NCBI GenBank assembly: GCA_038087875.1
Contig: CM075993.1
Span: 6,636,001 to 6,700,000, forward strand
Direction: 5' to 3'
Length of the DNA: 64,000 bases
Source: Malacoraja senta
Lineage: Eukaryota
Shown: positions 3,201 through 58,620 of the stretch, in pieces
Numbering within the stretch: the first letter of the stretch is position 1
Layout: every line of letters begins with the position of its first letter
Program-made: the position numbers and the translations under genes
Notes under the pieces: generated by a model
What the model was told of the DNA's origin: nothing
What the model saw: the letters and a program-made list of their open reading frames with translations, nothing else
The model's database searches: none

Positions 3201-6200
3201 GGATCGAACTAATGCATGGGGAGATCGCTGATCGGCTTGGACTCGATGGGCCGAAGGTCCTGTTTCCACGCTGCATCTCCAAAACTAAAACTAAACCATG
3301 ATGCCCATTTCCCAATAGGGCCTTGAGAACTTAAATGGAGTGGGGTTACGAGACCTTGGTTCTTTGGCCGTTCTCGCCCAATCCATGGCTGGTTGTGAAT
3401 TGGAATCCTTGCCATTGTCCCTGCATGAGCTCCGTCAACATGGTTTGACTTGATGTCCCATCTCCCCATCCACAGGCACTGCCGATTGTTGTCTTCTTCA
3501 GCTCCGTGATGTCCATTCTCTACTACATTGGCGCGATGCAATGGATAATCCTGAAGGTAGTACCAAGAGCCCGCGGTAGGTATAGCTGAATGCACAGCGC
3601 GATAGTGTAAGTGCTTGGCATCCTCCTTCTGAAAGCCATTTGTCGACTTCAATGGAACACAGTTTGGAGGCAGAACACAATGAGCCACCCCCCGAGATAC
3701 ATCACTCTGAAGGTAACATGTCTCATCTTATGCTTCCCTCTCTGCGTCAACCCACCACCACTCTCTCACCTCACCTCGCTTTGCCTTCCCGTAGACACTG
3801 ACAATGTTATGGTACGAAGATAGACACAAAAAACTGGAGTAATTCAGCGCGACAAGCAGCATCTCCGGAGAGAAGGAATGGGTAACGTTTCGGTCCGAAG
3901 AGAGGGTCTCGACCCGAAACCTCACCCATTCCTTCTCTCCACAGATGCTGCCTGTCCCGCTGAGTTACTCCAGCTTTTTGTGTCTATCTTCGGTTTAAAC
4001 CAGCATCTGCAGTTCCTTCTTACACAGACACGTAATGGTACGTTTAAGGCACTTTATTTGTCCCATGTACCGAGGTACGGTGAAATTCATTTTTAGATTC
4101 AGTTCAGTACAAGTATCACTATACATAAGCACTGAGATACATCTTAGATAAGCATCTCAGATGCAGTACAAGTGTATAACAGGAGTGCACTGAGACAGTA
4201 TGCAGAGATGCCATATTTTGACACCATTTTCAAGTCCCAGTTGTTGTTAGTGCAGGGATCTTGACCTGACCATGAAGGTCTGTTGTCCTGGCAACATTGC
4301 AGGGTCGGCCTGGCCAAGTGCAGGCGTAGCGTTCTCCACCGCTGTAGGCTGCGTGCCCCTTGGAGCGTGCCCCATGTTGCTGCAGGGCCTCCAGTGGTGC
4401 CCAATCTAATGGAGCCCCAGGCTTCTGCGGGGCCTCCAGCGGCCCACTCCCCCATCGAGGCCATGCACTCCCTCCCACAGCCCGCCTGCTCACGCTTCAG
4501 GTGGGTACCCGTGGGCCCTCGAACGGCGGGCTGCGGTCCACAAGGATGGCTCGCTGTTACGACATCCCAAATTGCAGTCCGTACGAACTGTGGTGTCGTT
4601 TCTCCAGATTGCGTGGTTGATGCAGATTACTATGGGCACGTCAGCAACAGAGACTCTGAGCGTCGCTGGCAATATCTTTGTGGGACAGGTAGGTCGACAA
4701 TCACAGGTAACTGCCTCCTCCAGCTGTGTTGTAATGCTTCTGCCAACCTGCTTTGCCAATGCGGACAATGGCATCTCTCCTTCTTGAGAACGTCAATGGT
4801 TCCGAGCCAGATGTCCACACCATTGTATGCCAGTCGGGACCAACAGGCCAATGTTTGGATAGCTTACAAAGAAGCATAGAAACATAGAAAATCAGTGCAG
4901 GAGTAGGCCATTCGGCCCATATGGCCAGCACCGCCAATTAATATGATCATGGCTGATCATCCAAATCAGTACCCCGTTCCTGCTTTTTCCCCATATCCCT
5001 TGATTCCGTTAGCCCTAAGTGCTATATCTGACTTTCTTAAAAAAAAAACATCCAGTGAATTGGCCTCCACTGCCTTCTGTGGCAGAGAATTCCACAGATT
5101 CACAACCCTTATTCTTACACTGTGACCCCTGGTTCTGGACTCCCCCAACATCTGGAATATTTTTCCTGCATCTAGCCTGTCCAATCCCTTAAGAATTTCA
5201 TATGTTTCTATAAGATTCCCTCTCATCCTTCCAAATTCCAGTGAATACAAGCCCAGTCGACCCATTCATTCATCAAGAAAGAATGATACGTACATTGAAT
5301 TCTCCAATTTTAGCTAATTAACTTTAAACCCCCTACTTCCCTTCCTGAATCACCCTTCCCCCCCTCCCTCCCTCTCTTCCCTGTGCCCCATCTGGACGTA
5401 CCCAGTTCTCCCCTTCCCCTCCACAACCACCTATATTCCTTCATCTGGCTTCACAATTCACACTTCTTCTATTCTTATCTCACACCAAATTGCCTTTCCA
5501 TATATAGCCTTTGTCCAACCAGCTGCCCATCAAGCACCCTCCTCACCTGTATCCACCTATCACTCCATAGATGCTGCTGCACCCGCTGAGTTTCTCCAGC
5601 ATTTTTGTGTACCTTCCACCTATCACTCGCCAGGCTTTGTCCTGCCCCTCCTCATGTCCAACTTACTCGTGCCCCCACCACCCACCACATTCAGTCTGAA
5701 GAAAGTCTAGATAGATCAGCCATGGTTGAATGGCAGAGTAGACTTGATAGTCCGAATGGCTTAAGTCCCAGCCCGAAGCGTTACCTATCCATGTTCTCCA
5801 GAGACAGATACAAAATGCTGGAGGAACCGGAATGAAGGAATGGGTGACGTTTCGGGTCGAGACCCTTCTCCAGACTGAAAGTCACGGGTAAAGGAAACGA
5901 GTGATATACTCGATAATGTGATGATGTAGAGAGGTAAAGAACAAATGAATGAAAGATATGCAAAAAAAGTTACGACGATAAAGGAATCTCTCCAGAGATG
6001 GTAAAGACATCTCTGGAGAGAAGGAATGGGTGACATATCAGGTTGAGACCCTTCTTCAGACTTCTTCAGCGTCTCCAGAGATGCTGCCTGTCCCACTGAG
6101 TTACTCCAGCACTTTGTGTCTTTTTTTTAAATGTTTGCAAAAGTCAATGGTTGACTGTGCCTGCCAGCAAGCAGAGACTTCCTTCCAAAGGGCTTCCTTG

Positions 6201-9200
6201 TAACAACCTGAAGGAATAAACAAAATGCTGGAGTAACTCAGCGGGACAGGCAGCATCTCTGGAGAAAAGGAATGGGTGGCACTTCGGGTCGGGACCCCTC
6301 TTCAGACTACAGGTGCTGGTTTGCAAAGAAGGACACAAAGTGCTGGAGTAACTCAGCGGGACAGGCAGCATCTCTGGAGAGGACATGGATAGGCAATGTT
6401 TCTGGTCGGGACTCTTCGTTAGATTGATTGTAATGGAGGGGCAGGAAGCTCTGAGGGCAGGACAAAGCCTAGCAAGTGATAGGTGGATACAGGTGAGGTG
6501 GGGGGGAGGGGGTATTGGTAGATGTTTGGGTGCTGGCCAGAGATGAAAAGACAAGAGGCTGCGAGATAAGGAGATCAGGAGATAAGAGGTGTGAAATGTG
6601 AAGCCAGAGGAAAGGATAAAGGTGTAGGAAGGAACTGCAGATGCTTGGTTAAACCAAAGATAGACACACAAAGCTGGAGTAACTCAGCGGGTCAGGCAGC
6701 ATCTCCAGAGAGAGGGAATGGTGACGTTTTGGGTCGAGACCCTTTTTCAGACTGAAGAAGGGTCTCGACCTGAAACGTCACCCATTCCTTCTCTCCAGAG
6801 ATGCTGCCTGTCCTGCTGAGTTACTCCAGCATTTTGTGTCCATCTTCGATTTAAACCAGCATCTGCCGTTCTTGCCTACAACACCTGAAGGAATATTTCT
6901 TTTCAGACGGAGGCACCTCTTCTCATCCGACCCTATCTGATGGAGATGACCAAATCAGAGATCCACGCTGTGATGACTGGGGGCTTTGCCACCATCGCTG
7001 GCAGTGTGCTTGGAGCCTACATCTCCTTCGGGGTAAGGGCCAGCCAGTCTTGGAACCCACGTGGCATCAATGACCTTGACATTTGTCTTTTCACTTGAAA
7101 CTTTCATAGAATGATGGGCGGCACGGTGGCGCAGCGGTAGAGTTACTGCCTTACACTACTTGCGGTGTCAGAGACCCGGGTTCGATCCCGACTACGGGTG
7201 CTGTCTGTACAGAGTTTGTACGTTCTCCCCGTGGTCCGTGTGGGGTTTTTCATGGACCTCCAGTTTCCTCCCACACTCCAAAGACGTGCAGGTTTGTAGG
7301 TTAATTGGCTTGGTAGAAGTGTATGTAAATTGTCCCGTGTGTGCAGGGTTGCGTTAATGTGCGGGGATCGCTGGTTGGCGTGGACTCGCTGGGCCGAGGG
7401 GCCTGTTTCCGCGCTGTATCTCTGAACTAAACTGAAGTAAAGAACGGACAGCAGAAACCTAGAAACCAATGGCCAAAAACGCAGAGGCTGAGATTCAAGT
7501 CCTATTCAAACGGCACGGTGGCGCAGCTGGTAGAGACCCCGGTTCGATCCTGACCTCGGCCGCTTTCTGTGCGGAGATTGCATCTTCTCCCCGTGACCGT
7601 GTGGGTTTTCTCCGGGTGCTCCGGTTTCCTCCCACATCCCAAAGAGACGTGCGGGTGGGTCTGTAGGTCAATTGGCCCTCTGTAAAATCGCCCCTAGTGT
7701 GTATAGAGTGGATGAGAAGGTGGGATAACGTAGAACAATGTGGATGATCGTCAGCGGTCAGCATGGACTCGCTGGACTGAAGGGCCTGCTTCCATGCTGT
7801 ATCCATAAAGTAAAATAAACTACAAGGTCAAAAATGTGAGGCATCGTTTGTTAAAAGCTGGTACTAAGACAGAATTTTATAGACTCAGAATTAATGGAAA
7901 TTTTTTTAGGAAGATGATGAGAAATGTCTTTAGTCAGAGCGGGTGGTGGATCTGTGGAATTCTTTGCCACAGAAGGCTGTGGAGGCAATCGACAATAGAC
8001 AATAGGTGCAGGAGTAGACCAGTCGGCCCTTCGAGCCAGCACCGCCATTCAATGTGATCATGGCTGATCATCCACAATCAGTACCCCGTTCCTGCCTTCT
8101 CCCCATATCCCCTGACTCCGCTTTCTTTAAGAGCTCCATCTAACTCTCTCTTGAAAGCATCCAGAGAATTGGCCTCTACTGCCTTCTGAGGATCCACTTC
8201 CTTCAGTGGATATTTTTTAAGGCAGAGATAGATAGATTCTTGAATGGTACAGGTGTCAGAAGTTATGGGGAGAAGGCAGGAGAATGGGGTGAGGAGGTAG
8301 ATCAGCCATGAATGAATGGCGGAGTAGACTTGATGGGCTGAATGGCGTAATTCTACTCCTATCACTTGTCACCTTACTACCTTATGCCGGTGCCAAACGT
8401 GATGCCTTCTTTACATTTTGCCGCTCAGACCTTCAACCCACGCCCTCTAATATTAGATATTTCTAACCTGGGGAAAGGGTTCTAACTGTCCATCATATCT
8501 ACGCCTGACATAATGGATGCACGGAGTCTCTTGCCCAGAGTAGGGGAATCGAGGACCAGAGGACAGAGGTTCAAGGTGAAGGGGAAAAGATTTAATAGGA
8601 ATCTGAAGGGTAACTTTTCCACACAAAGGGTGGTGGGTGTATGGAACAAGCTGCCAGGTTAGGTAGTTGAGGCTGGGACTATCCTAACATTTAAGAAACA
8701 GTTATACAGGTACAGTTCCTTCCTACACATCCTAATATCGTTTTTAATTCATCTTTCAAGAAACTGACCGGAATCTCTTGGGTTAGATGTTCTTCTCCAT
8801 TAATATCTTCGTCCTCGCCTTGCCTTCCAGATTAATGCGTCTAATTTGATAGCGGCATCCGTAATGGCTGCACCGTGCGCTCTCGCTCTGTCCAAACTCA
8901 GCTACCCTGAAGTCGAGGAATCCAAGTTCAAGACTGAGGAAGGAGTGAAACTAGACAGTAGGTGTGTGTGTCCAGCCCTGCTCTGTATGTATGTGTCCAT
9001 GATCAAAACTCTCCCGAGTCTTTAACGTCTTAGGACATAAGTGATAGGAGCAGAATTAGGCCAATTGGCTCTGTCGACTCCGCCATTCATAAGATCATTA
9101 GATCATTAGATCATGTGATAGGAGCAGAATTAGGCCATTCAGCCCATCAAGTTCTCCGCCATATCTCTCTCCTAACCCCATTCTCCTGCCTTTTCCCCAT

Positions 9201-12200
9201 AACCCCTGACACCCGTACTAATCAAGAATCTATCTATCTCTGCCTCAACAATATCCATTGGCTTGGCCTCCACAGCCTTCTGTGGCAATGAATTCCACAG
9301 ATTCACCACCCTCTGACTAAAGAAAATCCTCCTCATCTCCTTCCTAAAGGAACGTCCTTTAATTCTGAGGTGATGGCCTCTAGTCCTAGACTCTCCCACT
9401 AGTGGAAACATCCTCTCCACATCCATTCTATCCAAGCCTTGGATACTAGGCTCATTAGGAATTGGGACTTGAAATTGGGAAATTGGGTGGCACCATGACG
9501 CCCAATCTACAGTGATGAAGTTGCTGCCTCACAGCACGGAAACAGGCCCTTCGGCCCACCAAGTCCATGCCAACCAACGATCACCTATTCATGAGCACTA
9601 TCCTACACACTAGGGCAAAATTACATTTCTACCGAAGCCAACTAACCTACAAACTTGGCCGTCTATGGAGTGTGGGAGGAAACCAGAGCACCCGGGGAAA
9701 ACCCACGCGGTCACAGGGAGAACGCACAAACTCCGTACAGACAGCATCCATAGTCTGGATCGAACCCGGGTCTCTGGCGCGTTTAAAGCTAACCATTCCT
9801 TTCTTTTATTTATTCCCCCTTCAGCGGAGAACAGAATGTTCTAGAAGCTGCAAGTAATGGTGCCTCTGCCTCGGTTGGTTTGGTTGCTAACATCGCCGTG
9901 AACCTACTTGCATTTTTAGCTATTCTGAAGTTTTTGAACGCGGCTCTCTCTTGGTTTGGAGGTATGGTGGACTACCCTCAGCTCAGCTTCGAGGTATGAT
10001 ACAACTTTACACCTGGGCCTGTCCCCCTGTGAACACCACACCCATATCCACACAGACCTGCCGTCCACACCTCCAACCATGACCGCCAGATAATCGCAGT
10101 CAATTGTGGACGCAGCCCAGACCATCACACAAACCAACCTCCCTTCCATTGACTCCATTTATACCTCACGCTACCTCGGCAAGGCCAGCAGCATAATCAA
10201 GGACAAGTCACACCCTGGCCACTCCCTCTTCTCCCCTCTCCCATCGGACTAAAGGTATAGAACTGTGAAAACGCACACCTCCAGATTCAGGGGCAGTTTC
10301 TTCCCAGCTGTTCTCAGGCAATTGAATCATCCTACCACAATCAGAGAGCAGTGTTGAACTACTCTCTACCTCTTTGGTGACCCTCGGACTATCCTTGATC
10401 AGACTTTATTGGTTTTACCTTGCACTAAACGCTATTCCCTTGTCATGTCTCTGTGCACAGTTAAAGCCCTGTCCCACGGTACAAGTTCATTCCAAGAGCT
10501 CTCCCGAGTTTAAAAAAAATCAAACTTGTGGTAAGCACGGAGAATGAACGTAGCGGGTACGTCGGAGCTCGGGGACGTCTCTTAGCGCTAACGGCAGGTA
10601 CTCGGGAAGACTCGCTAACGACAGGTAAGCAGGGGAAGACTCGTGAAGATTTTTCAACATGATGAAAAATGTCCACGAGAGCCCCGAGTACCGACGAGTG
10701 GCCATTACCGTAAATCTCCGAGTTCAAATCAGGGCAAACTCGGGAGAACTCTTGGAATGAACTTGTACCGTGGGACAGGGGTTTAAATGGCTCGATTGTA
10801 ATCATGTATTGTCTTTCTGCTGGTTAGTTAGCACGCAACAAAAGCTTTTCACTGTACCTCAGTACACGTGGCAATAAACTAAACCTGTCACCAAGCAACA
10901 ACGTTAGTCACTCCAATCCACTGACAAGTTCAGTATCAGATTGGTAGCTACAGCATGTTGGTCTACCCAGGTGACAGGTAGATGAGAACATACAAGGCGT
11001 GATTAGTAAGTTTGCAGATGACACGAAAGTAGATTATTTTATTTTGGATTATTATATTTTATTTTGGATTAATTTATTTACATTACATTTATTTTATTTT
11101 AGTGTAGTTTATTACCACCACGTGTACGTGCAGGGATGTCACACTAACACTGCCCTGCACACACTAGGGACAACATTACATTTATAACCAAGTCAATTAA
11201 CCTACAAACCTGTACGTCTTTGGAGTGTGGGAGGCAACCGAAGATTACGGAGAAAACCCACGCGGGTCACGGTGAGAACGTACAAACTCCGTACAGACAA
11301 GCACCCACTAGTCAGGATCGAACCCGGGTCTCTGGCGCTGTGAGGTTGTAGCTCTACCACTGCGCACCGTGCCGCCAAGTTCTCCAGTATGAGTACATTT
11401 TTGATAACTGTAACATAAATAATCAAAAGATCATAAAATCATAAGACACGAGCAGAATTAAGCCATTCGGCCCATCGAGTCTGCTCCACCATTCAATCAT
11501 GGCTGATCGGTATTTCCCTCTCAACCCCATTCTCCTGCCTTCTCCCCATAACCGTGAAAAAAATCTATACATGATTACACTCCTTAGGTTAAGAAACTAG
11601 TCCACAATTACCTCCCAGACATATTATTTACCACCTCATATTTATCATTGCTTATTTTCTTCCAGCTTCTTTCATCTACCTTCTCAAACACTTCACAACT
11701 TTCACAAATTCACAAGTTCACGTTATACGAGTAGAATTAGGCCATTCGGCCCATCGCGTCTACTCCGCCATTCAACCATGGCTGATCTCTGCCACCTAAT
11801 CCCATTTTCGTGCCTTTTCCCCATAACCCTTGGCACCCATTATAATCAAGAATTTGTCTATCTCTGCCTTCAAAATATCCACTGACTTGGCCTCCACAAC
11901 CCTCTGTGGCAATGGGTTCCACAGATTAACTACTCTCTCACTAAAGAAGTTCCTCCTCACCTCCTTTCTAAAAGAGCGCCCTTTAATTCTGAGACTATGA
12001 CCTCCGGTCCTAGACTCTCCCACCAGTTGAAACATCCTTTCCACATCCACTCTATCTATGCCTTTCATTATTCTGTAAGTTTCAATGAGGTCCCCCCTCA
12101 ACCTTCTAAACTCCAGTAAGTACAGGCCCAGTGCTGTCAAACACACATCCCACTCATTTCTGGGATCATTCTTGTAAACCTCCTCAGGACCCTCTCCAGA

Positions 12201-15200
12201 GCCAGCACATCCTTCCTCAGATATGGAACCCAAATTAGCACACAGTACTCCAAATGTGGCCTGACCAGCACCTTATAGAGCTTTAAAGGCCCAAAAGAAC
12301 TTTAAAGGCTTCCCTCTTGTCATAGTTCTGTAGGGAAACACCGTTCAATTCTCCCTGGCTGCTTTGAGCTTGGAAGCCGTAGAATACGCCTGCTCTACAC
12401 ATCTATAACGACATCTGAACTCAATAACAACATGTAAAAGACACGTGGATAGTACATGGATAGGAAAGGTTTGGGGGATATGGGCCAAATGCCACATGCA
12501 TTTGGGTGGCACGGTGGCACAGCGGTAGAGCTGCCAACCTCACAGCGTCAGGAACCCGGGATAAATCCTGATCTCGGGTACTATCCATGCGGAGTTTGTA
12601 CATTCTCCCAGTGGATTTTCTCCGGGTGCTCTGGTTTCCTCCCACATCTTAGAGACGTGCAGGCTTCTGTAAATTGCCCCTAGTGTTAGGATGCAAACAT
12701 GGGATGACATAGAACTAGTGTATGGGTGATCAATGGTTGGCATCAGTGGGCCAAAGGGCCAGTTTCCACGCCTATATTCCACGCTTTTAGACTTTAGAGA
12801 TACAGCGCGGAAACCAGCCTTAGTCCCTCGTTGTCCACACTGACCAGCGATCGCCCTGTAGACTAGCACTATCCTACATACTAGGGACAATCCACAATTT
12901 TACCAAAGCCAAGTTATCTACAAACCTGTCTGGGAGGAAACCAGAGCACCTGGAGAAAACCCCCGTGGTCACAGGGAGAATTTACAATCTCTGTACAGAC
13001 AGCACCCGTAGTCAGGATCGAACCCAGGTTTCTGGCGCTGTAAGGCAACAACTCTACCGCTGTACCACCGTGCCGCTCTCTAGACCCTAGACATCAATGA
13101 GACTAGCTTAGAAGGGGCATCTTGGACAGCATAACAAATCTCACTGTACCTTAATTGGTACATGTGACAATAAACTGACCTTGAAACCTTGAGTTGGGCC
13201 GAAGGGCCAGTTTCTGTGCTCGTGACTCGGTGTCTCTACTTCTCCGAGTTAATACTGTATACACACAAAATGCTGGAGTAACTCAGTGGGACAGGCAGCA
13301 TCTCTGGAGAGGAGGAATGGGTGACGTTTCGGGTCGAGATCCTTCTTCAAACTTCGCATCTCGACCCGAAACGTCACCCATTCCCACTCCCCAGAGATGC
13401 TGCCTGCCCCGCTGAGTTACTCCAGCTTTTTGTGTCTATCTTCGGTATAGACCAGCACCTGCAGTTCCTTCCTAAACATGTTCCCACCGGAAATGTTTTA
13501 CTGTGGAAACAGGGACCTGCCGATGCTGGCTAACAAAACAAGGACAAAAGGTGCTGGAGTGTCTCAGCGGGTCAGGCAGCATCTCTGGAGAACATGGACA
13601 GATGAAGCATCTGCAGTTCCTTCCTACACTATACTGTGTACGCCACTCTGGTTGGGGATGTGCATTGTGGATATTGAGCACTGTTTTGTACCGTTTATGC
13701 AGAACATTTGCTCTTACGTCTTCATGCCTCTGGCCTTCATTATGGGAGCTGACTGGGAAGACTCGTTCCTTGTTGCCGAGCTGATTGGAGTCAAACTCTT
13801 CCTCAACGAGTTTGTGGCGTACCAGAACCTTTCCCAGTACAGGAACAAACGTTTAGCAGGAATATCTGAATTTATCAACGGCAAGAAGCAATGGATCTCA
13901 GTGAGTATTGCGTTTTAGAAATAAAAACATAGACAATAGGTGCAGGAGTAGGCCATTCGGCCCTTCGAGCCTGCACCGCCATTCAATGTGATCATGGCCG
14001 ATCAATCAACAGTATCCCGTGCCTGCCTTCTCTCCATACCCCCTGATCCCTTTAGCCACAAGGGCCACATCTTAAATATAGCCAATGAACTGGCCTCAAC
14101 TACCTTCTGTGGCAGAGAATTCCAGAGATTCACCACTCTCTGTGTGAAAAATGTTTTCCTCATCTCGGTCCTAAAAGACTTCCCCCTTATCCTTAAACTG
14201 TGACCCCTTGTTCTGGACTTCTCCAACATCGGGAACAATCTTCCTGCATCTAGCCTGTCCAACCCCCTTAAGAATTTTGTACGTTTCTATAAGATCCCCC
14301 CACAATCTTCCAAATTCTAGTGAGTACAAGCCGAGTCTATCCAGTCTTTCTTCATATGAAAGTCCTGCCATCCCAGGAATCAGTCTGGTGAACCTTCTCT
14401 GTACTCCCTCTATGGCAAGAATGTATTGCGGCAGATTTCTTTTAGTGTAGCTTAGAGATACAGCACAAAAACAGGCCCTTCGGCCCACCGAGTCCGTGCT
14501 GACCAGCAAACCACTGCACACACTAGGGACAATTTTAACTCAATCTAACACACACTGGGGACAATGTTACATTTATAACCAATGCAATTAACCTACAAAC
14601 CCTGTACATCTTTGGAGTGTGGGAGGAAACCAAAGATCTTGGAGAAAACCGGGTAGAACGTGCAAACTCCTTGCAGACAGCACCCGTAGTCAGGATTGAA
14701 CCCGGGTCTCTGGCGCTGTGAGGCAGCAACTCTACCGCTGCGCCACCGTGCTGCCTAATGTGAAAGTCAAAAGTGAAACTTCAGCCAACAAGTAGCCAAG
14801 GAACTGCAGATGCTGGGTCACAAAAAAAAGGCACAAATTGCTGGAGTAACTCAGCCTCTCTGGAGAACATGGATGCCGGTGATGTTTCGGATTTGGGACC
14901 TTTCTTCAGACTGATGGTGGAGGAGAAGAAGCAAGCTGGGAGAAAGGTGAGGCAGGACAAAGCCTGGTGAGTGAGACGTGTGGGTTTGTGGGTTAATTAG
15001 CCTCTGTAAAATGCCCCGAATGTGCAGGGCATTGATGTGAAATTGGGACAACAAAGAACTAGTGTGAACGGGCAAGCAACGGTGGGCGTGGACTCGATGG
15101 GCCGAAGGGCCTGTTTCCATGCTATATCTCTGACCTAAACTAGAGGCTACAGAGGCTTCTACAAAGGCTAGTTTGGTCAATGGGATTAGCACAGATGAAT

Positions 15201-20199: not shown

Positions 20200-20264
20200 T
20201 TAAAGCTTATTTTGAAGTGTTGTGGTGAATTTTCACAAAAGTCTGTTGGGTATCAGTGGCTCAA

Positions 20265-20780
20265 TGTGCAGGAAGGAACTGCAGATGCTGGTTTAAACCG
20301 AAGACAGGCACAAAAATGCTGGAGTAACTCAGCGGGACAGGAGAAAAGGAATGGATGACGCTTCGGGTCGAGACCCTTCTTCAGACTGAGAGTTGGGGAA
20401 AGGGAGACAAGAGATATAGACAGTGATGTAGAGAGAGGTAGAACAAATGAATGAAAGATATGCAAAAAAGTAACAGATAAAGGAAACAGGCCATTGTTAG
20501 CTGTGGGCCAGGTGAAAATGAGTTACAGACAATGAGACTCAACAAGCCAACTTTGAAGCTGGTACGACTTGGGTGGGGACGGATGGAGAGGGAGGGGATG
20601 TAATGGTTACTTGAAATGAGAGAAATCAATATTAATACTACTGGGCTGTAAGCTGCCCAAACAAAATATGAGATGCTGTTCCTCCAATTTGCGTCGGGCC
20701 TCACTCTGACAATGGAGGAGGACCAGGACTGAAAGGTCAGTGTGGGAATGGGAAGGGGAATTAAAGTGTTTGGCAACCGG
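20265..20780 (-). mobile_element. Penelope-like 3' end: ORF C-terminus, UTR and terminal module
   Basis: [38 protein letters not shown] matches the ORF at 32449..32769 and 49547..49753; collinear with the ~125-nt terminal repeat. Confidence 0.82.
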
Positions 20781-20896
20781 GAGAACCAGTGTATGGGGTG
20801 ATTGCTGGTCAGCGCAGACCCATTGGGCCAAAGGGCCTGTTTCCACGCTGTTTAAACTAGATTGGATAGCACGCAACAAAAAGCTTTTCACTGTAA

Positions 20897-22293: not shown

Positions 22294-22390
22294 ATAGATT
22301 CCCAATGACATATGATGCAGTGACCGTGTAGACAGCTCAATACCTCCACCTACTGATGGAAGGGGTTCATAGCACCTAACCAGGGTTTGT

Positions 22391-22463
22391 TTCATGAATG
22401 AGTGCGTCTTCCTTGCACAGGTAACATGCTCATTTTCCCTGTATTGTTCCAATTTTAGAATAT
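22391..22463 (-). pseudogene. U6 snRNA-derived pseudogene fragment
   Basis: Reverse complement ATATTCTAAAATTGGAACAATACAGGGAAAATGAGCATGTTACCTGTGCAAGGAAGACGCACTCATTCATGAA aligns ungapped to the vertebrate U6 core as recalled (58/73 by manual count). ACAGAGA box is mutated; no 5' stem-loop or oligo-U end. Confidence 0.88.
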
Positions 22464-24441
22464 TAGCTTGTAAACCTATGTATGATAATCTCACCCTGCC
22501 TGTTATGGTGGTTTTATCTGCTTGACTGTTGATATTTGTTCCAGGTGGATATGACATTAGACTTTAGAGATACAGCACGGAAACAGGCCCTTCGGCCCAC
22601 CGAGTCCACCCCATACGCTAGCACTATCCTACACACACGAGGGACAATTAACTTACAAACCTGCACATCTTTGGAGTGTGGGAGGAAACCGGAGCACCCG
22701 GAGAAAACCCACGCAGGTCACGGGGAGAACGTACAAACTTGGTACAGACAGCACCCGTGGTCAGGATCGAACCCAGCTCACTGGCTCTGTAAGGCAGCAA
22801 CTCTACCGCTGCGCCACCATGCCGCTCCTCTCACTGGGAGTACTAATGGGTGTATGTCAAGAACCAGCCATTGTTATGCTTTCAAGAGAGAGTTAGATAG
22901 AGCTCCTAAAGATAGTGGAGTCAAGGGATATGGGTTAGAAGGCAGGAACGGGGTACTGATTGTGGATGATCAGCCAAGAACACAGTGAATGGAAGTGCTG
23001 GCTCGAAGGGCCGAATGGCCTACTCCTGCACCTATTGGGGTGGTTGTGGAGGCAGATACGATAGGTGGTGGTTTTAGAGACTTTTGGATAGGCACGTGGA
23101 TATGCAGGGAATGGAGAGATAAGGTTAGTGTGCAGCAGATGGTTGTGGCATCTCGTTAGTACTGACATTGTGGGCTGAAAGTCCTGTTCTTGTGCTGAAC
23201 TTGGCTTTAGTTTTTAGAGATACATCGTGGAAACAGGCCCTTTGGCCCACTGAAAACACCCTGACCATCGATCGCCCATACACTAGTTCTATGCTGTACA
23301 CTAGGGACAATTTACAGAAGCCAATAAACTTACAAACCTGCATGTCTTTAGGATGTGGGAGGAAACTGGAGCACCTGGAGAAAACCCACGTGGTCACAGG
23401 GAGAATGTACAAACTCCGTACAGACGGCACCGGTAGTCAGGATCGAACCCGGGTCTCTTGTGCTGCAAGGCAGCAACTCTACCGCTGCACCGCTGTGCCT
23501 GAGAGAAGGCACTTGCCATAATCAGGAGGAGGTAGCCTTTACCTGCACCCATAGTCAGGCTCTCTGGCATGTAAGGCAATATCTCCACTGCTGCACCACT
23601 GTGCCACACGCACTGTTCTATGTTCTACCTTTAGAAGACCCAACACAGGCAGTGGAGAGGGTGAGATACAAAGATGGCAATTGAACCTTGAAGGTAGACA
23701 AAAATGCTGGAGAAACTCAGCGGGCGAGGCAGCATCTATGGAGTGAAGGAAATAGGCAACGTTTCGAAGGTCAAAACCCTTCTTCAGACAGATCCTTGAA
23801 GATTAGACTGAGTTGGAAGACAGGCCAAGAACCATTTTGAGCATCATATTTTCAACAGCGTACATCGTAGTGAAGTTAAGCTGACTCGCTTCCATTTTGA
23901 CTAAAAGAAAAACCCAATTTCAGTTGGACAATATTTTATTTCTTTCCTCTTAGTGTGATACACAGTGATGTGAATATGAAAAGACTTGAGTTCGAGGGAT
24001 GTGCATTTTAAGTACCACAATTATTAACGTAGCCAATACATTGAAAACCAAACTTCTTTATAATGAAACCATTACAACGAAACCCCCTTCATTAGGAAGC
24101 ATGCTTTACAATGAAACCTTATCATAAAATTCCTTTTTGAATGAAATTTCTTTCATAACTGAACTCCCCTTGATAATTAAACTCCCAAATAGTGAAACAT
24201 TTCAAAAACCCCAGTGAAATGTGTGAATTATTTAATTCTTCAAATAATGAACAAACCATGAAATTACTGTTTTAATGCTTCCTTAAAGGGGGTTCCACTG
24301 TATTTCAATTATATGAGCAGGAATATTCTAAACAATATTAATGTAACATAAAGTTGTTTTGTTCAGATAGCGGTCAATGCTAACATTGGACAAATGTGAA
24401 ATGCTTCTTTTCACCCCCACACCAAACCCGATTTTTAAATA

Positions 24442-25148: not shown

Positions 25149-28100
25149 TATTCCCAAATACCCTGAATGTAATAAGAATCAGTATAACGTGTGGTACATT
25201 TGGTAAGTACCATGCGATTGCTTGTCACTATTCCAAGTGCACAATACAGTTGGGTTGTTCCTTCAGGAACGAGGTGAGAAGGAATTTCTTTAATCAAAGA
25301 GTGGTGAATCTATGGATTTTTTTGCCCCATATCCCTCCAAAGCTGTCCTATCCGTGTATCTGTCTAACTGGGGTGGGAGATTGCAACCTTCACGTGGTCC
25401 ACCCTGTTTCGACCAATGCAATCCACCCGACGTGCACAAACATACAAGATCAAATAGAACAAGCTGACCTACAACTTTAGGCTGCGCATGCCATACGCAA
25501 GAAGAAGTTCTGTCTAACTGTTTCTTGAACTCCCTACACCCTACGAGCGATTTACAGAGGCCCTTTAACCTACGACCCCTACATCCTTTGAGAGGTGGGA
25601 GGAAACCGGAGCACATGGGGTAAAGAATGCACCCATTCCTTCTCTCCGGAGATGCTGCCTGTCCTGCCGAGTTACTCCAGCATTTTGTGTCTACCTCCGA
25701 TTTAAACCAGCATCTGCAGTTCTGTCCTGCACATGGAGTAAATCTACGCAGTCACATGGAGAGCGTGCCAACTCCACACAGACAGGATCGAACCGGGGTC
25801 TCTGGCGCTGTGAGGCAGCGGCTCTACCGCTGCCTCAAGATGGCGCCACTGTGCCGCCATCTTGGTAAACTTCCTGAACGTACAAAGGTAGATTCCTGGG
25901 GCTAAAATTGCGTACTTATGAAGCTCAGACTCTGGATTGTTAAGAGGCCATGAACATTGTAAAGTTGGAGGAGCAATCTCCATCATTACTCGTATATAAT
26001 TCTGTCCACGGATCTTCTCACTTAAGTTGGGAAGGCACTAGATACAGGACCATGCCAGTGAGGAGCAGATGACAGGCCAACCCATGTGACAAATTCTGTC
26101 TAATTTAGTTTGTAAACAATAGACAATAGGTGCAGGAGTAGGCCATTCGGCCCTTCGAGCCATGATTCAATGTGATCATGGCTGATCATCCACAATCATT
26201 ACCCCATTCCTGCCTTCTCTCCATTTCCCTTAACTCCTTAACTTGTAGCCCTAGTAGCCCTTCGGCCCACCGAGTCCGCACCGACCAGCGATCCCCGCAC
26301 ACTAACACTCTCCTACACACACGAGGGACAATTTTATATTTACGCCAACCCAATTAACCTACAAACCTGTACGTCTTTGGAGGGTGGGAGGAAACCAAAG
26401 ACCTCGACGAAAACCCTAGCAGGTTACGGGTAGAACGTAAAAACTCTGTACAGACAGCACCCGTAGTCAGGATCGAACCGGGGTCTCTGGCGCTGTAAGG
26501 CATAACCCTATGGCCGCACCACCCAGAAGTCCATAACTTGATATTGTTCATAAGTCAGAAGATACACAAAATTGAGATGCTGGGATAACCATACCTCCAT
26601 AATATTGTAATGAGTAACCTCAGAGGCACTTAATTCTGATGAGAAAGAACTATTACTCAAGGTGGAATGAGAGCCAAATCTGGCAACTGTATACTGTCTC
26701 AGTGTGCTACTTCTATAAGTTGCATTGTACCTGAGATGCTTATGTAAGATGTATGCACGTGCTTATGTATAGTGATACTTGTCCGGAACTGTGTACAAAT
26801 AAAAATTAATTTCACTGTACCTCGGTACCTGTGACCAATAAAGTACCATTGAATCTATGGGAGACATGAAACTAGTTCAGCCCTTCATCGGAACGAACAT
26901 GTACATACTTTGGCGTTTTGAATTTGATACTATCATGGGAGCTCACTTGAACGTAGGGAGATTATAATGCGGGGCGGTCTGTGAGGGCCTTTGTAGACTC
27001 CATCTACACCTCACGCTGCCTCGGCAAGGCCAGCAGCATAATCACGGACCAGTCCCCACCCCGGCCACTCCCTCTTCTCCCCTCTTCCATCAGGCAAGAG
27101 GTTCAGAAGTGTGAAAGCGCACACCTCCTGATTCAGAGACAATTTCTTCCCCGCTGTTATCAGGCAGCTGAACCGTCCTACCACCAACTAGAGAGTGGCC
27201 CTGACCTCCCACCTCCCACCTTCTCCATTGGAGACCTTTGAACGATATCTAATTGGACTTTATCAGACTTCAGTGTTATATCTTTGAACTAAAATGTTGT
27301 TCCCTTCATCCTCTATACGTACACTGTAAACGACTTGTTTAACAAAGGACTGCAGATGCTGGAAAAATCGAAGGTAGACAAAAAAGCTGGAGAAACTCAG
27401 CGGTCGAGGCAGCATCTATGGAGCGAAGGAATAGGCGACGGTTAGGGTCGAGACCCTTCTTCAGACTGATGTCGGGGGAGGGGGGGCGGGAAAAAGACTG
27501 TACACGGCTTGATTGTATTTGCGTGTAATCTTTTTGCTGATTGGATAACACGTGAACAAAAGCTTTTCACTGTACCTCGGGGCACGTGACAATAATAAAC
27601 TAAACTGCACTAATTCTTCCCACTACCTCCTCAGCCTTAGCCCTTTTCCACCAGATCCACCTACACCTCACTATAACTTCCCGCACTCACTTATCCCAGT
27701 CACACACCCCCTCCAAGAATCAACTCCATCTCACCCCAACAGAAGTCTTTAATGTTTCATTCAATGCTGGCAGCAAGACTTGTCACTATGGCTGCCCGCA
27801 CACTGTCTGCCCACAGGATCAACTATATACAAAACATCTCCCTTTGTCCTGTGCAGCGCCACCTGCTGCACGGGAGGAGGAACGGGTCGTCCCACCCCAC
27901 ACAGTCCACCAAACATCACACACCCCCTCCAAGAATCAACTCCATCTCACCCCACTTTCCTTCTCTCTCCTCATACACACCAAAGCTCAGTTAAATCGAG
28001 CGCTCTATTTAACTGCTCATCTTCCGCATGAGAAATACAGTGGTCAAGGTGACCGACTATAACCGAAAGCAACTGAGAGTTCCATCAACAATCTACATCC

Positions 28101-30940: not shown

Positions 30941-32419
30941 ATATGAGCATATAAGCGTACACCAATGATGGGGTGTAGATGTATATGAAGAATTGTTCAC
31001 CCTTGCCTTGTTGTGAGTCTCAGTTCTAAAACACCAGAACTGATGGTAAGGAAAAGACAAAACCGCTTCAGTTCAAAACCCTGCTTCAAATATAATGGAT
31101 AAAGTACGTGGTATCTTCGACCTGCTGCTATAAGGAGTTCTCTTTACAATGGTCTTTATCTAACAACACAAAGCAATGGTGGATACTTGGGATTAGATGG
31201 AAGTTGCATGGGCAGTACACATGGACCAATGTGGGATAGACACAAAATGCTGGAGTAACTCAGCTGGACAGGCAGCATCACTGGGGAGAAGGAACAGGTG
31301 ACGTTTCGGGTCTAAACCCTTCTTCAGACTGGGAGTCAGAGGAGACGAAGACATAGAGATATGGAAGGGTGAGGTGTGAAAACACAGATCAAAGGGGACG
31401 AAGTTCAAGGAAAATGTAGAATGGTTATTTGTTGGCTGAAGAAGTGACAACGAGGCATACAACCTGTAAAATGTAATCAGACAATAGACAATAGGTGCAG
31501 GAGTAGGCCATCCGGCCCTTCGAGCCAGCACCGCCATTCAATGTGATCATGGCTGATCATCCCCAATCAGTACCCCGTTCCTGCCTTCTCCCCATATCCC
31601 CTGACTCCCCTATCTTTAAGAGCCCTATCTAGCTCTCTCTTGAAAGCATCCAGAGAACCGGCCTCCACCGCCCTCTGAGGCAGAGAATTCCACAGACTCA
31701 CCACACTCTGTGACTTCGGGTCGAGACCCTTCAGACTGGTTAGGGATAAAGGAAACGAGAGATATAGGCGATGATGTAGAGAGATAAAGAACAATGAATG
31801 AAAGATATGCAAAAAAGTAACGATGATAAAGGAAACAGGCCATTGTTAGCTGTTTGTTAGATGAAAATGAATAGCTAATGCGATGGGTGGGGGAGGGATA
31901 GAGAGAGAGGGAATGCCGGGGCTACCTGAAGTTAGAGGAATCAATATTCATACCGCTGGGTTGCAAGCTGCACAAGCGAAATCGTGATCAGACAGTGATC
32001 AGTCTGAAGAAGGGTTTCGACCCGAAACGTTGCCTATTTCCTTCGCTCCATAGATGCTGCCGCACCCTCTGAGTTTCTCCAGCACTTTTGTCTACCAAGC
32101 GAAATATGAGATGGGAGTTGTGTAATTTCCCCGGGGCAGTAGAGGGCGCTGTTGTGGTGTAGAAGGGAAAGCAGAGGATGCTATGCCAAGTCAAACTGTG
32201 ACACCAGACCTGAATTGGATCAGGCTGACCTGACCCAGGCTATCAGGAATTACATTATACCACTCCACATTTTGGTTCACCACAACAAGCACAATCAAAG
32301 TGTTTCGAATCAAGAAAGGATTTAATCGGGTAGATCCAGAGAAACTAAAATCCTCAGATAGACATAAAAAGCTGGAGTAACTCAGCGGGACGATTTAAAC
32401 CAGCATCTGTAGTTCCTTA

Positions 32420-32990
32420 CTTTCCCCTGCAACCGCAGGAGATGCAACATGTCCCTTCCCCCCCCCCCCCCTCCCCTCCCCCCCCTCGACTCCATCCAAG
32501 GACCCAAACAGTCTTTCCAGGTGAGGGATAGGTTCACTTGCACCTCCTCCAACCTCATCTACTGTATCCGCTGTTCCAGGTGTCAACTTCTCCACATCGG
32601 CGAGACCAAGTGCAGGCTCGGCCATCGTTTCACTGAACACCTCCGCTCAGTCCGCCTTAACCAACCTGATCTCCCGGTTGCTCAGCACTTCAACTCCCCC
32701 TCCCATTCCCAATCTGGCCTTTCTGTCCTGGGCCTCCTCCATTGTCAGAGTGAGGCCCACCCAGAGTGAGACCCTCCGTACAGACAGCACCCGTGGTCAG
32801 GATTGAACCTGGGCCTCTGGCGCTGTAAGCTCTTCCTTTATCATCATTACTTTTTTGCACATCTTTCATTCATTTGTTCTCGGTATCTTTATATCACCGT
32901 CTATATCTCTTGTTTCCCTTTCCCCTCTCTCAGTCTGAAGAAGGGTCTAGACCCGAAACGTCACCCATTCCTTCTCTCCAGTGATGCTGG
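32420..32990 (+). mobile_element. Penelope-like retroelement remnant: GIY-YIG endonuclease fragment, 3' UTR and hammerhead-like core, interrupted by a SINE piece
   Basis: FTCTSSNLIYCIRCSRCQLLHIGETKCRLGHRFTEH is a Cys-rich GIY-YIG signature; downstream CTGAAGA-A-GGGT-CTAG-ACCC-GAAACGTC at 32935-32962. Confidence 0.85.
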
Positions 32991-35611
32991 GTAGGCTATT
33001 TAGAACTGAGATGAGGAAAACCCTTTTCACCCAGAGAGTTGTGAATTTGTGGAATTCTCTGCCCTCAGAAGGCAGTGGAGGTCGATTCACTGGATGCATT
33101 CAAAAGAGAGTTAGATAGAGCTCTTAGGGCTAGCGGAATCAAGGGATATGGGGAGAAGGTACTAATTGTGGATGATCAGCCATGATCACATTGAATGGTG
33201 GTGCTGGCTCAAATGCCTACTCCTGCACCTATTTTCTATGTATCTATGTATGCTTTCTTAACATTCTGAGTTACTCCAGCTTTTTGTGTCTAACTTCAGT
33301 TTAAACCAGCATCTGCAGTTCCTTCCTGCACAATAGAGCAGTTTTAATCTTTTCAGTACCGGTGATTAATTGAATAAAAGCTGCTTGTTAATGGAAACAA
33401 GTAAAAGATCTGCAGTCTTCATGATGACAAATTGTAAAATGACAGATTGATCATTTCAAAACCTTAAAGGTCATCATTTAGTTTAGTTTAGTTTAGAGAT
33501 ACAGCACGGAATCAATCCCTTCGGCCCACCGAGTCCACATCGACCAGCGATCCCGCATATTAACATTATCCTACACACACTAGGGACAATTTTTACATTT
33601 ATACCAAGCCAAACTACCTACAAACCTACACGTCTTCATAGTGTGAGAGGAAACCGAAGGACATGTGGAGAACGTACAAACTCCGTACAGACAAGCACGC
33701 AGAGCCAGAATTTAACCCGGGTCTCTGGCGCTGTAAAGCAGCAACTCTACCACTGCGCCACCCTGCAGCCATGTCTTTATTTATGTCTTTCCCACTGTAT
33801 ATTTGTACACTTTGTCAACATTGTTCAATGCAGAACTGCTAAACGCAAGATTGCAGTTGAAAGTGTCGCATCTTGAGAAGCAGCAGCGGTGGGACCCTAA
33901 ATGAGTTCCACACCGGGTTATTTTTACTCTCCCAGGTTCACTCGTTTCTGATCAACTAGGATTCTGTATCAGTGTCAAGGTCAGAAGTGATAGCAACTGA
34001 ATTAGGCCATTGGGCCCATCAAGTCTACTCCGCCATTCAATCATGGCTGATCTATCACTCCCTCCTAACCCCATTCTCGTGCCTTCTCCCCATAACCCCC
34101 GACACCCGTACTAATCAAGAATCTATCTATCTGCCTTAAAAATATCCATCGATTTGGCCTCCACAGCCTTCTGTGGTGAGGAATCCCACAGATTCACCAC
34201 CCTCTGATTAAAGAAACGTCACATCAGGCACGTTAACGGCAGCTCGTGAAACGCCAATGTTCCAATCGCAGCGGTCTATGTTGGGGCAATACCACAGCAG
34301 TGTCTAAGTCCAAATGCTCGCGTCCATTTGGGAAGGGCAGCTACTTCCCAGGATCAATCTCAAGCCATCCGGCCTGTACGTTAAAAGACACAAAGCGCTG
34401 GAGTAACTCCGCGGGTCAGGCAGCATCTCCGGAGAAGATGGATAGGTGACGTTTCAGGTTGGGACCCTTCTTCAGTCTAACTCCATTGCACATGGTCAGA
34501 CACACTGGTTAAATACACTGCTCCAGTGCTCAGTCAGGGCATGTTGCCATTAGCATCACAGGGTTACAATTTCAATCAACACCTCTGGTGTGTCCATATT
34601 AAATTCCTCTGCGTGCAATTTAAGTGACCTCTGAACTTTTACATCTGTCTTCCTATCCGCCTTTTAGTTTAGGGATACAGCATGGAAACAGGCCCTTCAG
34701 CCTACCGAATCCACGCTGACCATCGCTCACCAGTTCACCATAGTTCTATGTTATTCCACTTTTGTTATTCCACTCCCTACGCATTGGGGACCATTTACAG
34801 AGGGCCAATTAACCAACAAACCCACACGTCTGGAATGTGGGAGAAAAACGGAGGACCCAGCGGAAGCCCACGCGGTTACAGGGAGAACGTGTAAACTCCG
34901 CACGGACAGCACCTGAGGTCAGGATCGAACCCGGGTCTCTGGCGCTGTGAGGCAGCGGCACTACCCGTTGCACCACCGTGCCGCTCTGATAGTAGTTGTA
35001 CCAGATCTCAGCTCTGTGAGTAGACATCCTGCTTCAAGAGCCTGGTGTCAGGAGGGCGAGCGATATGTTGGACCATCATGAAGGTAGTCAGGATCTCCAC
35101 AGCTGAGGACGTTGGCCTGGGTCAAGATACTGATGTTGGTTCATTTATCATTCCAGTGAATTGGAGGATTTTGCAGTGACCACTCGTGATATGCTCTCAG
35201 GCCAATTAACCCAGCAAACCCACACATCTTCAGGATGGGGAGGAAACCGGAAACTCCACACACAGACCGAACCCGAGGCCAGGATCGAACCCGCGTCTCT
35301 GGCGCAGTGAGGAGGCAGCTGTACCGCTGTGCCACCTGTGCCACCCTACGGAAGAAACTGGAGCACATAATACACTGCCTGGCATCTTATGAATGGACCA
35401 CCGATTCTCCCATCAGTTCAATGTTGAAGAAAGGAACTGCAGATGCTGGTTTAAACCGAAGATAGACGCAAAAAGATGGAGTAACTCAGCGGGACAGGCA
35501 GCATCTCTGGAGAGAAGGAATGGGTGATGTTTCGTGTCGAGACCCAAGGGTCTCGACACGAAACGTCACCCATTCCTTCTCTCCAGAGATGCTGCCTGTC
35601 CCGCTGAGTTA

Positions 35612-57423: not shown

Positions 57424-58620
57424 TCACTGGGTTGGGATTGTGTATTGTTGTTGACTGAATGAAAGATGCAATGGAGGAGACTGTTTTAGATTATTTCATG
57501 GCTATGAAGGATGCAGGAAGGATGCGTTCCTTACTACCGATTTACTTTTGCTTTACCATTGCTTTTCCTACATCAACGAACTTATGAATACACCAAAAGA
57601 TAAATGTTTGTTAGAAATATGAAGAAAAATTCCAAGATGCCTTCATACATTTGGCAGTATATTTTGACCAGTAAAACAATACACAAATCTAACTCATAAA
57701 TATAATACGTAATTGAAAACATTATGTAAATGATGAAGAGAAGCATGTAAGGGGTTTCAAGAGAAACCAGGGAAGGAATGGAACTGCTCTGAGAGCTAAC
57801 ATATTTACGGGCCAAATGGCCTCCTTCTGTGTCAAGAGGAAATCTCTGGATTGGTGACATTTCAGCCAGCTGTCCGTAATTCTTATGGTGCAGGAGGGAA
57901 CTGCAGATGCTGGTTTACACCGAAGATAGACACAAGATGCTGGAGTAACTCGGCGGGACAGGCAGTATCTCTGGATAGAAGGAATGGGTGAAGTTTCAGG
58001 TCGAGACCCTTCTTCAGACAACCATTCCTTTTATCCAGAGATGCTGCCTGTCCCACTGAGTTACTCCAGCATTTTGTGTCTTCATTTTTCAGCCCTTGTC
58101 CTGATTTTCTTTATCAACAGGTTGGGAAATACATTCCAAAGTGGTTACAAACGTCTATTCATAGCTGCAGTTTATTTGTGACCCTCTCTTGCATTTTTTA
58201 TTCTTATTTGGGTAATTGTTGATGAAAGGTGCTGGTCCAACAGTTGCAAGGAGAATCATGTTATGTGTGGGAAAGAACTGCAGATGCTGGTTTAAATCGA
58301 AGGTAGACCCAAAATGCTGGAGTAACTCAGCGGGACAGGCAGCATCTCTGGAGAGGAGGAATGGGTGACATTTCGGGTCGAGACCCTTCTTCAAGTCTGA
58401 AGGAATCTGGATTGGTGACACTCCAGCTAGCCGAAGAAGGGTCTCGACCCAATGCATCACCCATTCCTTCTCTGCAGAGATGCTGCCTGTCCCGCTGAGT
58501 TACTCCAGCATTTTGTGTCTATCTTTGGTCTCTGGAGAAAATGGATCACCTGAATGACCCAAATCGTCACCTTATTCAGGTGATCCATTTCTCCAAAGAT
58601 GCTGCCTGACCCGCTGAGTT

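Follow-up and report, generated by a model that had tools for sequence, protein, structure and literature searches.

Palindromic copies of the hammerhead-bearing 3' end of a Penelope-like element in the skate Malacoraja senta

A composite insertion in front of a host exon

A 64,000-nt stretch of the Malacoraja senta genome (GCA_038087875.1, contig CM075993.1, positions 6,636,001 to 6,700,000 of the forward strand; hereafter the window) was analysed, for which a preliminary description had reported a ~125-nt repeated module bearing a minimal hammerhead ribozyme core and often arranged as a head-to-head palindrome. This module is the 3' end, consisting of a minimal hammerhead motif and a tail, of a GIY-YIG Penelope-like element (PLE), and the origin of its palindromes is considered here. 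All counts of copies and pairs cover this one 64,000-nt window only. Module positions are numbered from q1, the first C of CTGAAGA (CUGAAGA in RNA), q-1 being the preceding base, and the copies belong to three subfamilies (A, B, and C types).

The palindrome at 6623–6880 has no target-site duplication (TSD) of its own and is the outer part of a 664-bp composite insert that does have one, laid out as an inverted A arm, an A module, a C-type pseudo-long terminal repeat (pseudo-LTR), a C module, and an A module:

6206–6218, plus strand: left copy of the exact 13-bp TSD of the whole composite (score 13; among 400 null pairs, 5 reach 8 and none exceeds 10)
6219–6308, minus strand: subfamily-A module starting at q-3, with a short 3' end (~q92); the 3'-most piece of the composite
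6306–6428, minus strand: subfamily-C module with tail (to q117) and degenerate core, head-to-tail with the A piece
6423–6622, minus strand: C-type pseudo-LTR, truncated at its 5' end and lying upstream of the C core; homologous stretches at 60598–60649, 5430–5564, and 14951–14980
6623–6750, minus strand: left palindrome arm, a subfamily-A module with tail, in which A replaces both catalytic G8 and catalytic G12
6747–6755, unstranded: junction, formed by the element's micro-palindrome TCAG-N-CTGA (q-5 to q+4), axis at 6751
6752–6880, plus strand: right arm, an inverted subfamily-A module with tail
6752–6779, plus strand: minimal hammerhead core with CUGANGA, extra A, GAA, palindromic ACGU, and H17 = C (definition from PMC4209133)
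6883–6895, plus strand: right-hand TSD copy (13 bp), shortly before the host exon's splice acceptor
6907–7032, plus strand: host exon, not part of the element, with AG/GT bounds and an open frame

The two arms are identical at 110 of 129 positions, and the predicted fold of the palindrome has an energy of -192.6 kcal/mol (z -23.8). The right-arm core has a 4-bp helix II with one G-U pair and a predicted cut after 6779, and is intact except that the first helix-I pair is lost. The layout of a partial tandem plus an inverted copy has been published for PLEs (PMC3846280, PMC8557442); at 6206–6895, extra template jumps (A, C, A) within one 664-bp event would produce it.

The host exon likely belongs to an SLC28/CNT nucleoside transporter. 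The gene name comes from the open reading frame (ORF) at 13451–13915 (plus strand), whose transporter exon (Pfam PF07662, E 5.9e-19) was the sole match when 50 of the 141 stop-to-stop ORFs were compared with Pfam, and the repeats around these exons lie in introns. In the region 6878–6906, the composite insertion duplicated a probable branch-point stretch as its TSD, and its 250-nt hairpin ends 27 nt before the exon.

Abundance and parent element

The core motif was found 29 times at no more than 3 mismatches, compared with 0 times in 100 shuffles. BLAST searches with one palindrome arm as the query recovered 73 pieces, and those with three subfamily queries recovered 80, amounting to 6,739 bp or 10.5% of the window. 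Among 58 hand-picked copies, the three subfamilies numbered 34, 15, and 9. Neighbours at most 60 nt apart (n = 30) were arranged head-to-head in 22 cases, in tandem in 5, and tail-to-tail in 3. The module is thus a very common repeat here and is frequently palindromic, in both respects as first described.

Three remnants of the parent coding region were recovered:

32419–32757, plus strand: PLE ORF remnant with Cys linker motif and GIY-YIG endonuclease, upstream of the core at 32935
20610–20783, minus strand: GIY-YIG C-terminal remnant, followed by the pseudo-LTR and then the module at 20267–20384 (tblastn; part of the stretch used in read mapping)
49550–49780, minus strand: GIY-YIG remnant upstream of the module at 49270–49347 (tblastn)

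All three match relatives at E <= 1e-18 in tblastn. The frame at 32413–32769 reads as a Cys linker plus GIY-YIG endonuclease, and the remnant at 32494–32757 matches 12 proteins among 34 candidates (best E 1.6e-38), the best being from Leucoraja and Rhinoraja, with further matches to Mobula and to a sea-urchin protein combining reverse transcriptase and endonuclease (RT-EN). The GIY-YIG Pfam matches of the relatives are weak and below the cut-offs, and the window's own GIY-YIG piece had no Pfam match. One relative, P0009, carries RT and EN in one ORF. Neither an RT remnant (sought by tblastn with P0004 and P0009) nor a full element was found within the window. A CX2-5CxxC linker is present in P0002, P0004, and P0009 and is degenerate at the start of the window remnant. 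Such a linker before the endonuclease is a feature of Neptune and Nematis (PMC8557442) and, judged from sequence, points to a parent near these clades.

The preliminary description had placed the module directly 3' of GIY-YIG remnants. The remnants do lie upstream and in the same orientation; however, they were detected for only 5 of the 80 pieces (3 by tblastn and 2 by a short end motif only), and the pseudo-LTR intervenes, leaving ~180–320 nt between remnant and core.

The minimal hammerhead

A strict minimal-hammerhead pattern with a paired helix II, following the definition of Cervera and de la Pena (2014; PMC4209133), was matched by 7 copies compared with 0 in 50 shuffles. These cores are those at 32004, 32935, 54780, 6752 (plus strand), 31327, 34475, and 45998 (the last three on the minus strand), and include the three that had previously been cited as intact, each of which passes with its helix II paired. 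The hallmarks present are CUGANGA, the extra nucleotide, helix II with G10.1-C11.1, GAA, the palindromic 15.2-16.2, and UH. Together with the GIY-YIG remnants, they bear out the earlier identification of a PLE-derived minimal hammerhead.

The majority sequences of the three subfamilies differ at 30 of ~131 columns overall and at 0 of 21 catalytic and helix-II positions (P = 0.0025), so that the excess conservation of the core, on which the preliminary description had made its ribozyme claim depend, is present. Changes near the core affect loop II, H17 (C or U), and position 1.1 (A or G, still pairing with U). This conservation is moderate evidence, because downstream blocks are also invariant and because the copies were found by core likeness. 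In the parent elements, selection probably maintained the hammerhead.

Helix I comprises 2 bp only (G-C and U-A or U-G), shorter than the 4–5 bp expected and as weak as first noted, and its predicted pairing probability is ~0 in three native-start copies. A longer helix I was sought in cis and from the distal strand and was not found. In an alignment of 20 rows with one locus entered twice, helix II was 90% paired with one-sided G-U changes only, which is not above shuffles, and no compensatory double changes were seen in the helices. In predicted monomer folds, the purine-rich core pairs with downstream pyrimidines, while predicted homodimers pair through helix II plus ACG(U); modelled folding thus gives the active hammerhead shape no support. 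Opening the core inside the palindrome hairpin would cost a predicted 20–27 kcal/mol, in line with the earlier caution that the hairpin sequesters it. A 2-bp helix I is known for Drosophila virilis Penelope (PMC4209133).

A covariance-model search, of the kind suggested at the outset, was negative: among 23 Rfam matches in the window at E <= 1 there was no hammerhead family, and the matches consisted of U6, hairpin-type microRNA (miRNA) models below their own cut-offs, and two weak others. The palindromes at 13307–13391, 48952–49075, 62158–62227, and 6659–6845 scored weakly against many Rfam miRNA models, and such palindromes probably give rise to false miRNA annotations.

Most copies keep the core, which indicates that most templates were not cleaved. 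In the Poseidon element of Anolis, uncleaved RNA is the main template and the hammerhead needs the protein (PMC11167929). Two copies, at 25630 and 58019, start at the predicted cleavage site (q28/29), a number too small to serve as evidence. Inside the palindromes, the hammerhead is probably a buried, decaying passenger. The first of the two copies is a solo that is possibly a copy of a cleaved RNA:

25630–25731, plus strand: solo module from q28/29, with a 14-bp TSD containing 1 mismatch

The second lies in the pair at 57892–58081, in which one arm starts at q28/29 and the other at q-2, with the ACGU changed; a long helix I, provided by the inverted arm, could form around the core on the minus strand.

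Ends of the copies

Measured against a reference that stops at q126, the 3' ends of the 58 copies fall at q81–104 (27 copies) and q117–126 (23), with 8 shorter, which in outline gives two sites at ~q90–100 and ~q120–126+. Within the module segments q48–55, q76–81, and q105–112, one strand, AGATGCTG, is able to base-pair with one or the other of two CAGCAT copies further downstream. Each 3' end site lies ~15–20 nt after one CAGCAT copy, and these may be alternative RT-recognition hairpins.

At the other end, the scoring placed the 5' stop at q-6 to q+4 for 35 of the 47 copies that reach the core, a number that falls to ~33–34 after correction for two copies that continue into the C-type pseudo-LTR. 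In copies that continue 5', q-1 is immediately preceded by a pyrimidine tract and YAG, the latter in 15 of the 16 contexts listed. This boundary could be a splice acceptor, an RNA start, or a block by bound protein. A splice acceptor is the likelier reading, because in D. virilis Penelope an intron ends at helix I (PMC4209133) and transcription starts further upstream (PMC2377424); the boundary could then be placed between AG and UCUGAAGA. Among the solos and the joints listed, there were no spliced retrocopies and no common exon 1 upstream of q-1. TCAGT at the 5' edge resembles an initiator, and an initiator-like TCACT is mentioned for PLEs (PMC3846280). The Drosophila downstream promoter element RGACGTGY (PMC2377424) was also considered and was not counted, as 5 of its 8 letters only were matched.

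Structure of the palindromes

Four further loci show the following structures:

32356–32423, unstranded: non-overlapping inversion, with q59–94 inverted and abutting q96/97–124 in direct orientation; no TSD found; a twin-priming signature
48888–49104, unstranded: B-type palindrome with a long arm from q16 and a short arm from q-2; exact 14-bp TSD
54666–54847, unstranded: A-type palindrome with a long arm from q16 and an arm spanning q-3 to q68; exact 10-bp TSD; intact core at 54780
62069–62314, unstranded: B-type palindrome with a long and a short arm and a partial duplication in the spacer; exact 14-bp TSD

The axis had been described as lying at the start of the core, with both strands yielding nearly the same ~250-nt rod. 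This form proved exceptional: the axis is at the core start in only 4 of the 22 pairs (6751, 19001, 38707, and 40839), and 6623–6880 is the sole pair with two full arms. No two of the 22 pairs share both junction and arm ends. Each of the three subfamilies forms its own palindromes, and in 18 of 22 pairs both arms belong to one subfamily (permutation mean 9.4, p = 1e-4); in several pairs, rare variants are common to both arms. Four pairs are joined at TCAG-N-CTGA and two or three at GTC common to q-2 to q+1 and helix II, including 54666–54847, where GTC is a microhomology; the remaining junctions are blunt or contain spacers. Long and short arms are combined in 12 of the 16 scorable pairs (P = 0.04), and 6 pairs were unscorable.

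TSDs of 10–15 bp with a score of at least 8 were found at 9 of 22 head-to-head loci (28 boundary pairs tried), compared with 3 of 23 solos and 5 of 400 null pairs. The inverted 5'-truncated copy, the one-sided 30–40-bp tail, and the TSD agree with the earlier statement that PLEs form inverted terminal structures.

Reads and contigs of related genomes

Raw reads of run X21, from a related genome (1,938 Mb read), were mapped to the native copy at 20230–20800, on which 248,831 reads were placed. The module was covered to a depth of ~84,000, the sequence immediately upstream of it to 7,800, and the GIY-YIG peak to 35,200, so that the module is at least ~2.4 times as deep as the GIY-YIG end. Counting copies that resemble one copy by >=82%, the module was estimated to occur at least ~43 times per Mb read. 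Among the strand-switch joints, the six with the best support have their restarts at q+1, -1, -2, -3, -4, and -5, with 325, 472, 1,018, 710, 271, and 1,191 reads, respectively, a total of 3,987 among the joints listed, whereas head-to-tail joints accounted for 25 reads among the joints listed. The depth dropped 11-fold at q-5, and 24,383 loose ends were counted at 20389. Contigs of runs X1, X2, and X15 contain the same kinds of joints, with rare tandem joints. In contigs of run X2 over 20357–20388, short head-to-tail repeats of the core alone were seen with a period of ~35–40 nt, possibly a very small retrozyme-like array in a related species.

Formation of the palindromes

Taken together, we regard it as highly probable that the palindromes were formed at insertion. 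An origin at the DNA level, through independent insertions in or beside older copies, later fold-back duplication of solos, or assembly artefacts, has very little probability. The 4 pairs that mix subfamilies would suit it, as would the B/A pair at 45874/46046 with its 43-nt spacer and no TSD, and PLEs have been reported to insert beside existing copies (PMC6765202); however, at 9 loci both arms lie between the two copies of a TSD, head-to-head pairs are far more frequent than tail-to-tail pairs (22 against 3), and strand-switch joints also occur in the raw reads and contigs of other runs. The arms differ by ~13–15%, unlike assembly or library fold-back, and at ~15% difference an assembly artefact was rejected.

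Each palindrome is, in our view, probably the one-off product of an insertion by twin priming and not a copy of a travelling unit. The copy ends, TSDs, and junctions are read from the DNA itself, and the enzymology is deduced from them. In this scheme, the PLE nuclease would make staggered cuts, and both free DNA ends would prime reverse transcription at the two tail sites. The reverse transcriptase would stop at the 5' edge of the hammerhead, and the two antisense complementary DNAs (cDNAs) could pair only at self-complementary spots, which are located in the hammerhead; hence the joining would be head-to-head. Several junctions do overlap at TCAG/CTGA or at the GTC common with helix II. If both primers acted on one RNA, the outer would displace the inner cDNA and leave a long and a short arm with common rare variants. 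To our knowledge, PLE proteins have no RNase H domain. An outer primer that stopped at the inner one would leave abutting arms without overlap, as at 32356–32423, while long-long pairs such as 6623–6880 would need two RNAs or the reuse of one site.

Twin priming of L1 was reportedly proposed by Ostertag and Kazazian in 2001 and is said to give two non-overlapping segments. As described in PMC2246262, it is alike in that both break ends prime on the RNA and thereby create an inversion. Unlike in L1, overlap between the arms here is mostly complete, and the site used by the inner primer is fixed.

In the snap-back alternative, a single strand, either an antisense RNA or the first cDNA, bends back at the micro-palindrome or at helix II and primes its own copying, and the resulting hairpin is resolved and inserted by the endonuclease. 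Its antisense-RNA version is the published inference for the palindromic junctions of PLEs (Arkhipova et al. 2013, PMC3846280), and same-subfamily arms with common rare variants would follow from it equally. The edge-reaching arm is the longer one in 4 pairs (2545, 3815, 48464, and 57892), as self-copying would leave it. In 3 others (13259, 48893, and 54671), two of which have TSDs at both ends, it is the shorter one, and self-copying of one cDNA is thereby excluded at these loci. Fold-back also cannot make the abutting, non-overlapping inversion at 32356–32423, and at an exact-axis junction it would need a loop of 1–3 nt. We therefore consider snap-back unlikely as the general explanation.

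A number of observations count against twin priming. Several second arms end at q18, q54, or q68, which are neither of the priming sites and fit snap-back better, and at 38690 and 54666 a TSD directly abuts such an arm. The excess of long-short pairs is modest and hand-scored, with P rising to 0.06–0.09 when one or two pairs are dropped. Arm identity (0.87) is barely higher than that among same-subfamily copies (0.855), and 4 of 22 pairs mix subfamilies. No TSD was found at 13 of 22 loci, 32356–32423 included, and the TSD boundaries were set by hand. Regarding the reads, the X21 tallies are those among the joints listed, with 1,723 more joints in existence; the 20341 side of these joints is probably an effect of a 12-nt deletion in the reference copy; the depth drop at q-5 is no proof of an RT stop, because it arises in part from the different upstream sequence of other subfamilies, to which the loose ends at 20389 belong; and run X15 was flagged as probably DNA, so that neither it nor the RNA-labelled runs of small share count as evidence of expression.

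The preliminary description had instead taken the palindromic module for a non-autonomous, strand-symmetric mobile unit reminiscent of retrozymes. In its present form, this explanation holds that the palindrome, or a subset, is transcribed and that the PLE protein re-mobilises it in trans, starting at the tail of either strand and possibly with processing by the ribozyme. The numerical excess of the module over GIY-YIG sequence (at least ~2.4-fold in the related genome, and 80 to 5 in the window) would be expected from such a unit, as would TSDs that flank whole palindromes and the recurrence of the TCAG-N-CTGA axis, found in 4 of 22 pairs and in the largest class of the joints listed, which accounts for 1,191 of 3,987 reads. 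Moreover, pLTR (pseudo-LTR) sequences suffice for mobilisation in trans in rotifers (PMC3846280), and pLTR-derived non-autonomous retrozymes have been described (preprint 10.64898/2026.07.22.740005). Nevertheless, subfamily, arm length, and deletions vary among the four exact-axis cases, no two pairs share junction and arm ends, 6623–6880 has no TSD of its own, the hairpin would bury the core by the predicted 20–27 kcal/mol, and tandems are rare (5 of 30 neighbours, and 25 against 3,987 reads among the joints listed). The proposed unit is not supported by these comparisons within the window and appears improbable, and a new ribozyme-bearing mobile unit is a weak claim. Because head-to-tail tandems are the defining form of retrozymes, the palindromic module is not a retrozyme; the same arrangement, rare here, is the form that a dimer-cleaving ribozyme needs, and among the 7 strict cores there were no adjacent tandem units both with a complete hammerhead.

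In a more far-reaching version of the twin-priming scheme, the minimal hammerhead would serve for pairing and stopping and not for cutting. The template would end or be blocked at AGUCUGA, the PLE protein would make a short cDNA resembling a strong-stop product from each of the two tail sites, the symmetry of the hammerhead would seal the hairpin, and some hairpins would re-mobilise from either strand as minimal non-autonomous elements. Both tail sites could belong to the same RNA, or to two RNAs joined by way of the ACGU and helix-II palindromes. As a whole, this version is speculative and rather unlikely to be correct in all its parts.

Comparison with known systems

Canonical PLEs (Arkhipova et al. 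2013, PMC3846280; Craig et al. 2021, PMC8557442) resemble the present family in the GIY-YIG ORF end, the pseudo-LTR, the hammerhead near the 3' end, the inverted 5' copy with a palindromic junction, the ~30-bp tail on one arm, the enclosing TSD, and the partial tandems. Unlike in canonical PLEs, both copies here are cut to the hammerhead plus tail (~95–130 nt), so that the insertion is a bare hairpin; the density is very high; and the 5' ends cluster at the 5' edge of the hammerhead. The minimal hammerheads of PLEs (PMC4209133) share CUGANGA, one extra nucleotide before helix II, G10.1-C11.1, GAA, and the palindromic ACGU in place of helix III, and likewise occur as many dispersed single copies with some opposite-strand pairs. 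Compared with those of Schistosoma, helix I is of 2 rather than 4–5 bp and helix II of 4 rather than 7–8 bp. Cartilaginous fishes are not named among the minimal-hammerhead hosts in the parts of PMC4209133 cited here.

Anolis Poseidon PAc (Frangieh et al. 2024, PMC11167929) is similar in having two internal RT start sites that bound a 30–40-bp tail, matched here by the two 3' end classes, and its protein cuts and extends both target strands. In contrast to Poseidon, the ends here often show short microhomology to the target, and the PLE clade is different. Neither twin priming nor an explanation of inverted ends is proposed in the sections of that paper cited here. Animal non-LTR retrozymes (Cervera and de la Pena 2020, PMC7229834; Li, Clavereau and Pollet 2026, preprint 10.64898/2026.07.22.740005) are also non-coding, pLTR-related, and hammerhead-bearing, with dispersed monomers and long TSDs; however, they are head-to-tail tandems expressed as circular RNAs, whereas inverted pairs dominate here and the module is known from DNA alone.

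The inverted 5'-truncated copy, one-sided tail, TSD, and minimal hammerhead are therefore all already published features of PLEs. In a mostly open-access literature, taken without Repbase, Dfam, and supplements, no published account was found of the present family, of 5'-end clustering at the hammerhead, or of twin priming in PLEs. Apparently unpublished are the pile-up of 5' ends at the hammerhead edge, the junctions at its self-complementary pieces, and the clean twin-priming split at one locus; the supplements of preprint 10.64898/2026.07.22.740005, which include one chondrichthyan genome, could bear on this novelty.

Other features of the window

Further abundant repeats, some with inverted ends of their own, were seen at 10458–10789, 38856–39095, 48235–48364, and, e.g., 7987–8191, and a ~220-nt repeat interrupts several modules (31490–31710, 33032–33239, and 48223–48463). 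A 784-aa open frame at 50812–53166 (minus strand), acidic and of low complexity, with an internal repeat and no Pfam match, is probably one large exon belonging to an opposite-strand host gene. The minus-strand sequence at 22376–22478 is a degenerate U6 small nuclear RNA copy (65.8 bits), probably a retro-pseudogene.

Significance

The origin of the inverted ends and one-sided tail of PLEs is an acknowledged open question, for which antisense self-priming (Arkhipova et al. 2013, PMC3846280) and endonuclease resolution (Craig et al. 2021, PMC8557442, where mechanistic work is asked for) have been proposed. The main value of the present family lies in the material it offers for testing how these ends arise: because the whole product is 200–260 bp long and very abundant, statistics of junctions, arm lengths, and TSDs can separate twin priming from snap-back in existing assemblies. 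If the hammerhead did act as a pairing device, skate genomes would hold tens of thousands of frozen intermediates that settle the formation of inverted ends in PLEs. For the host, introns acquire long RNA hairpins from this family, with possible consequences for editing, small RNAs, and false miRNA calls.

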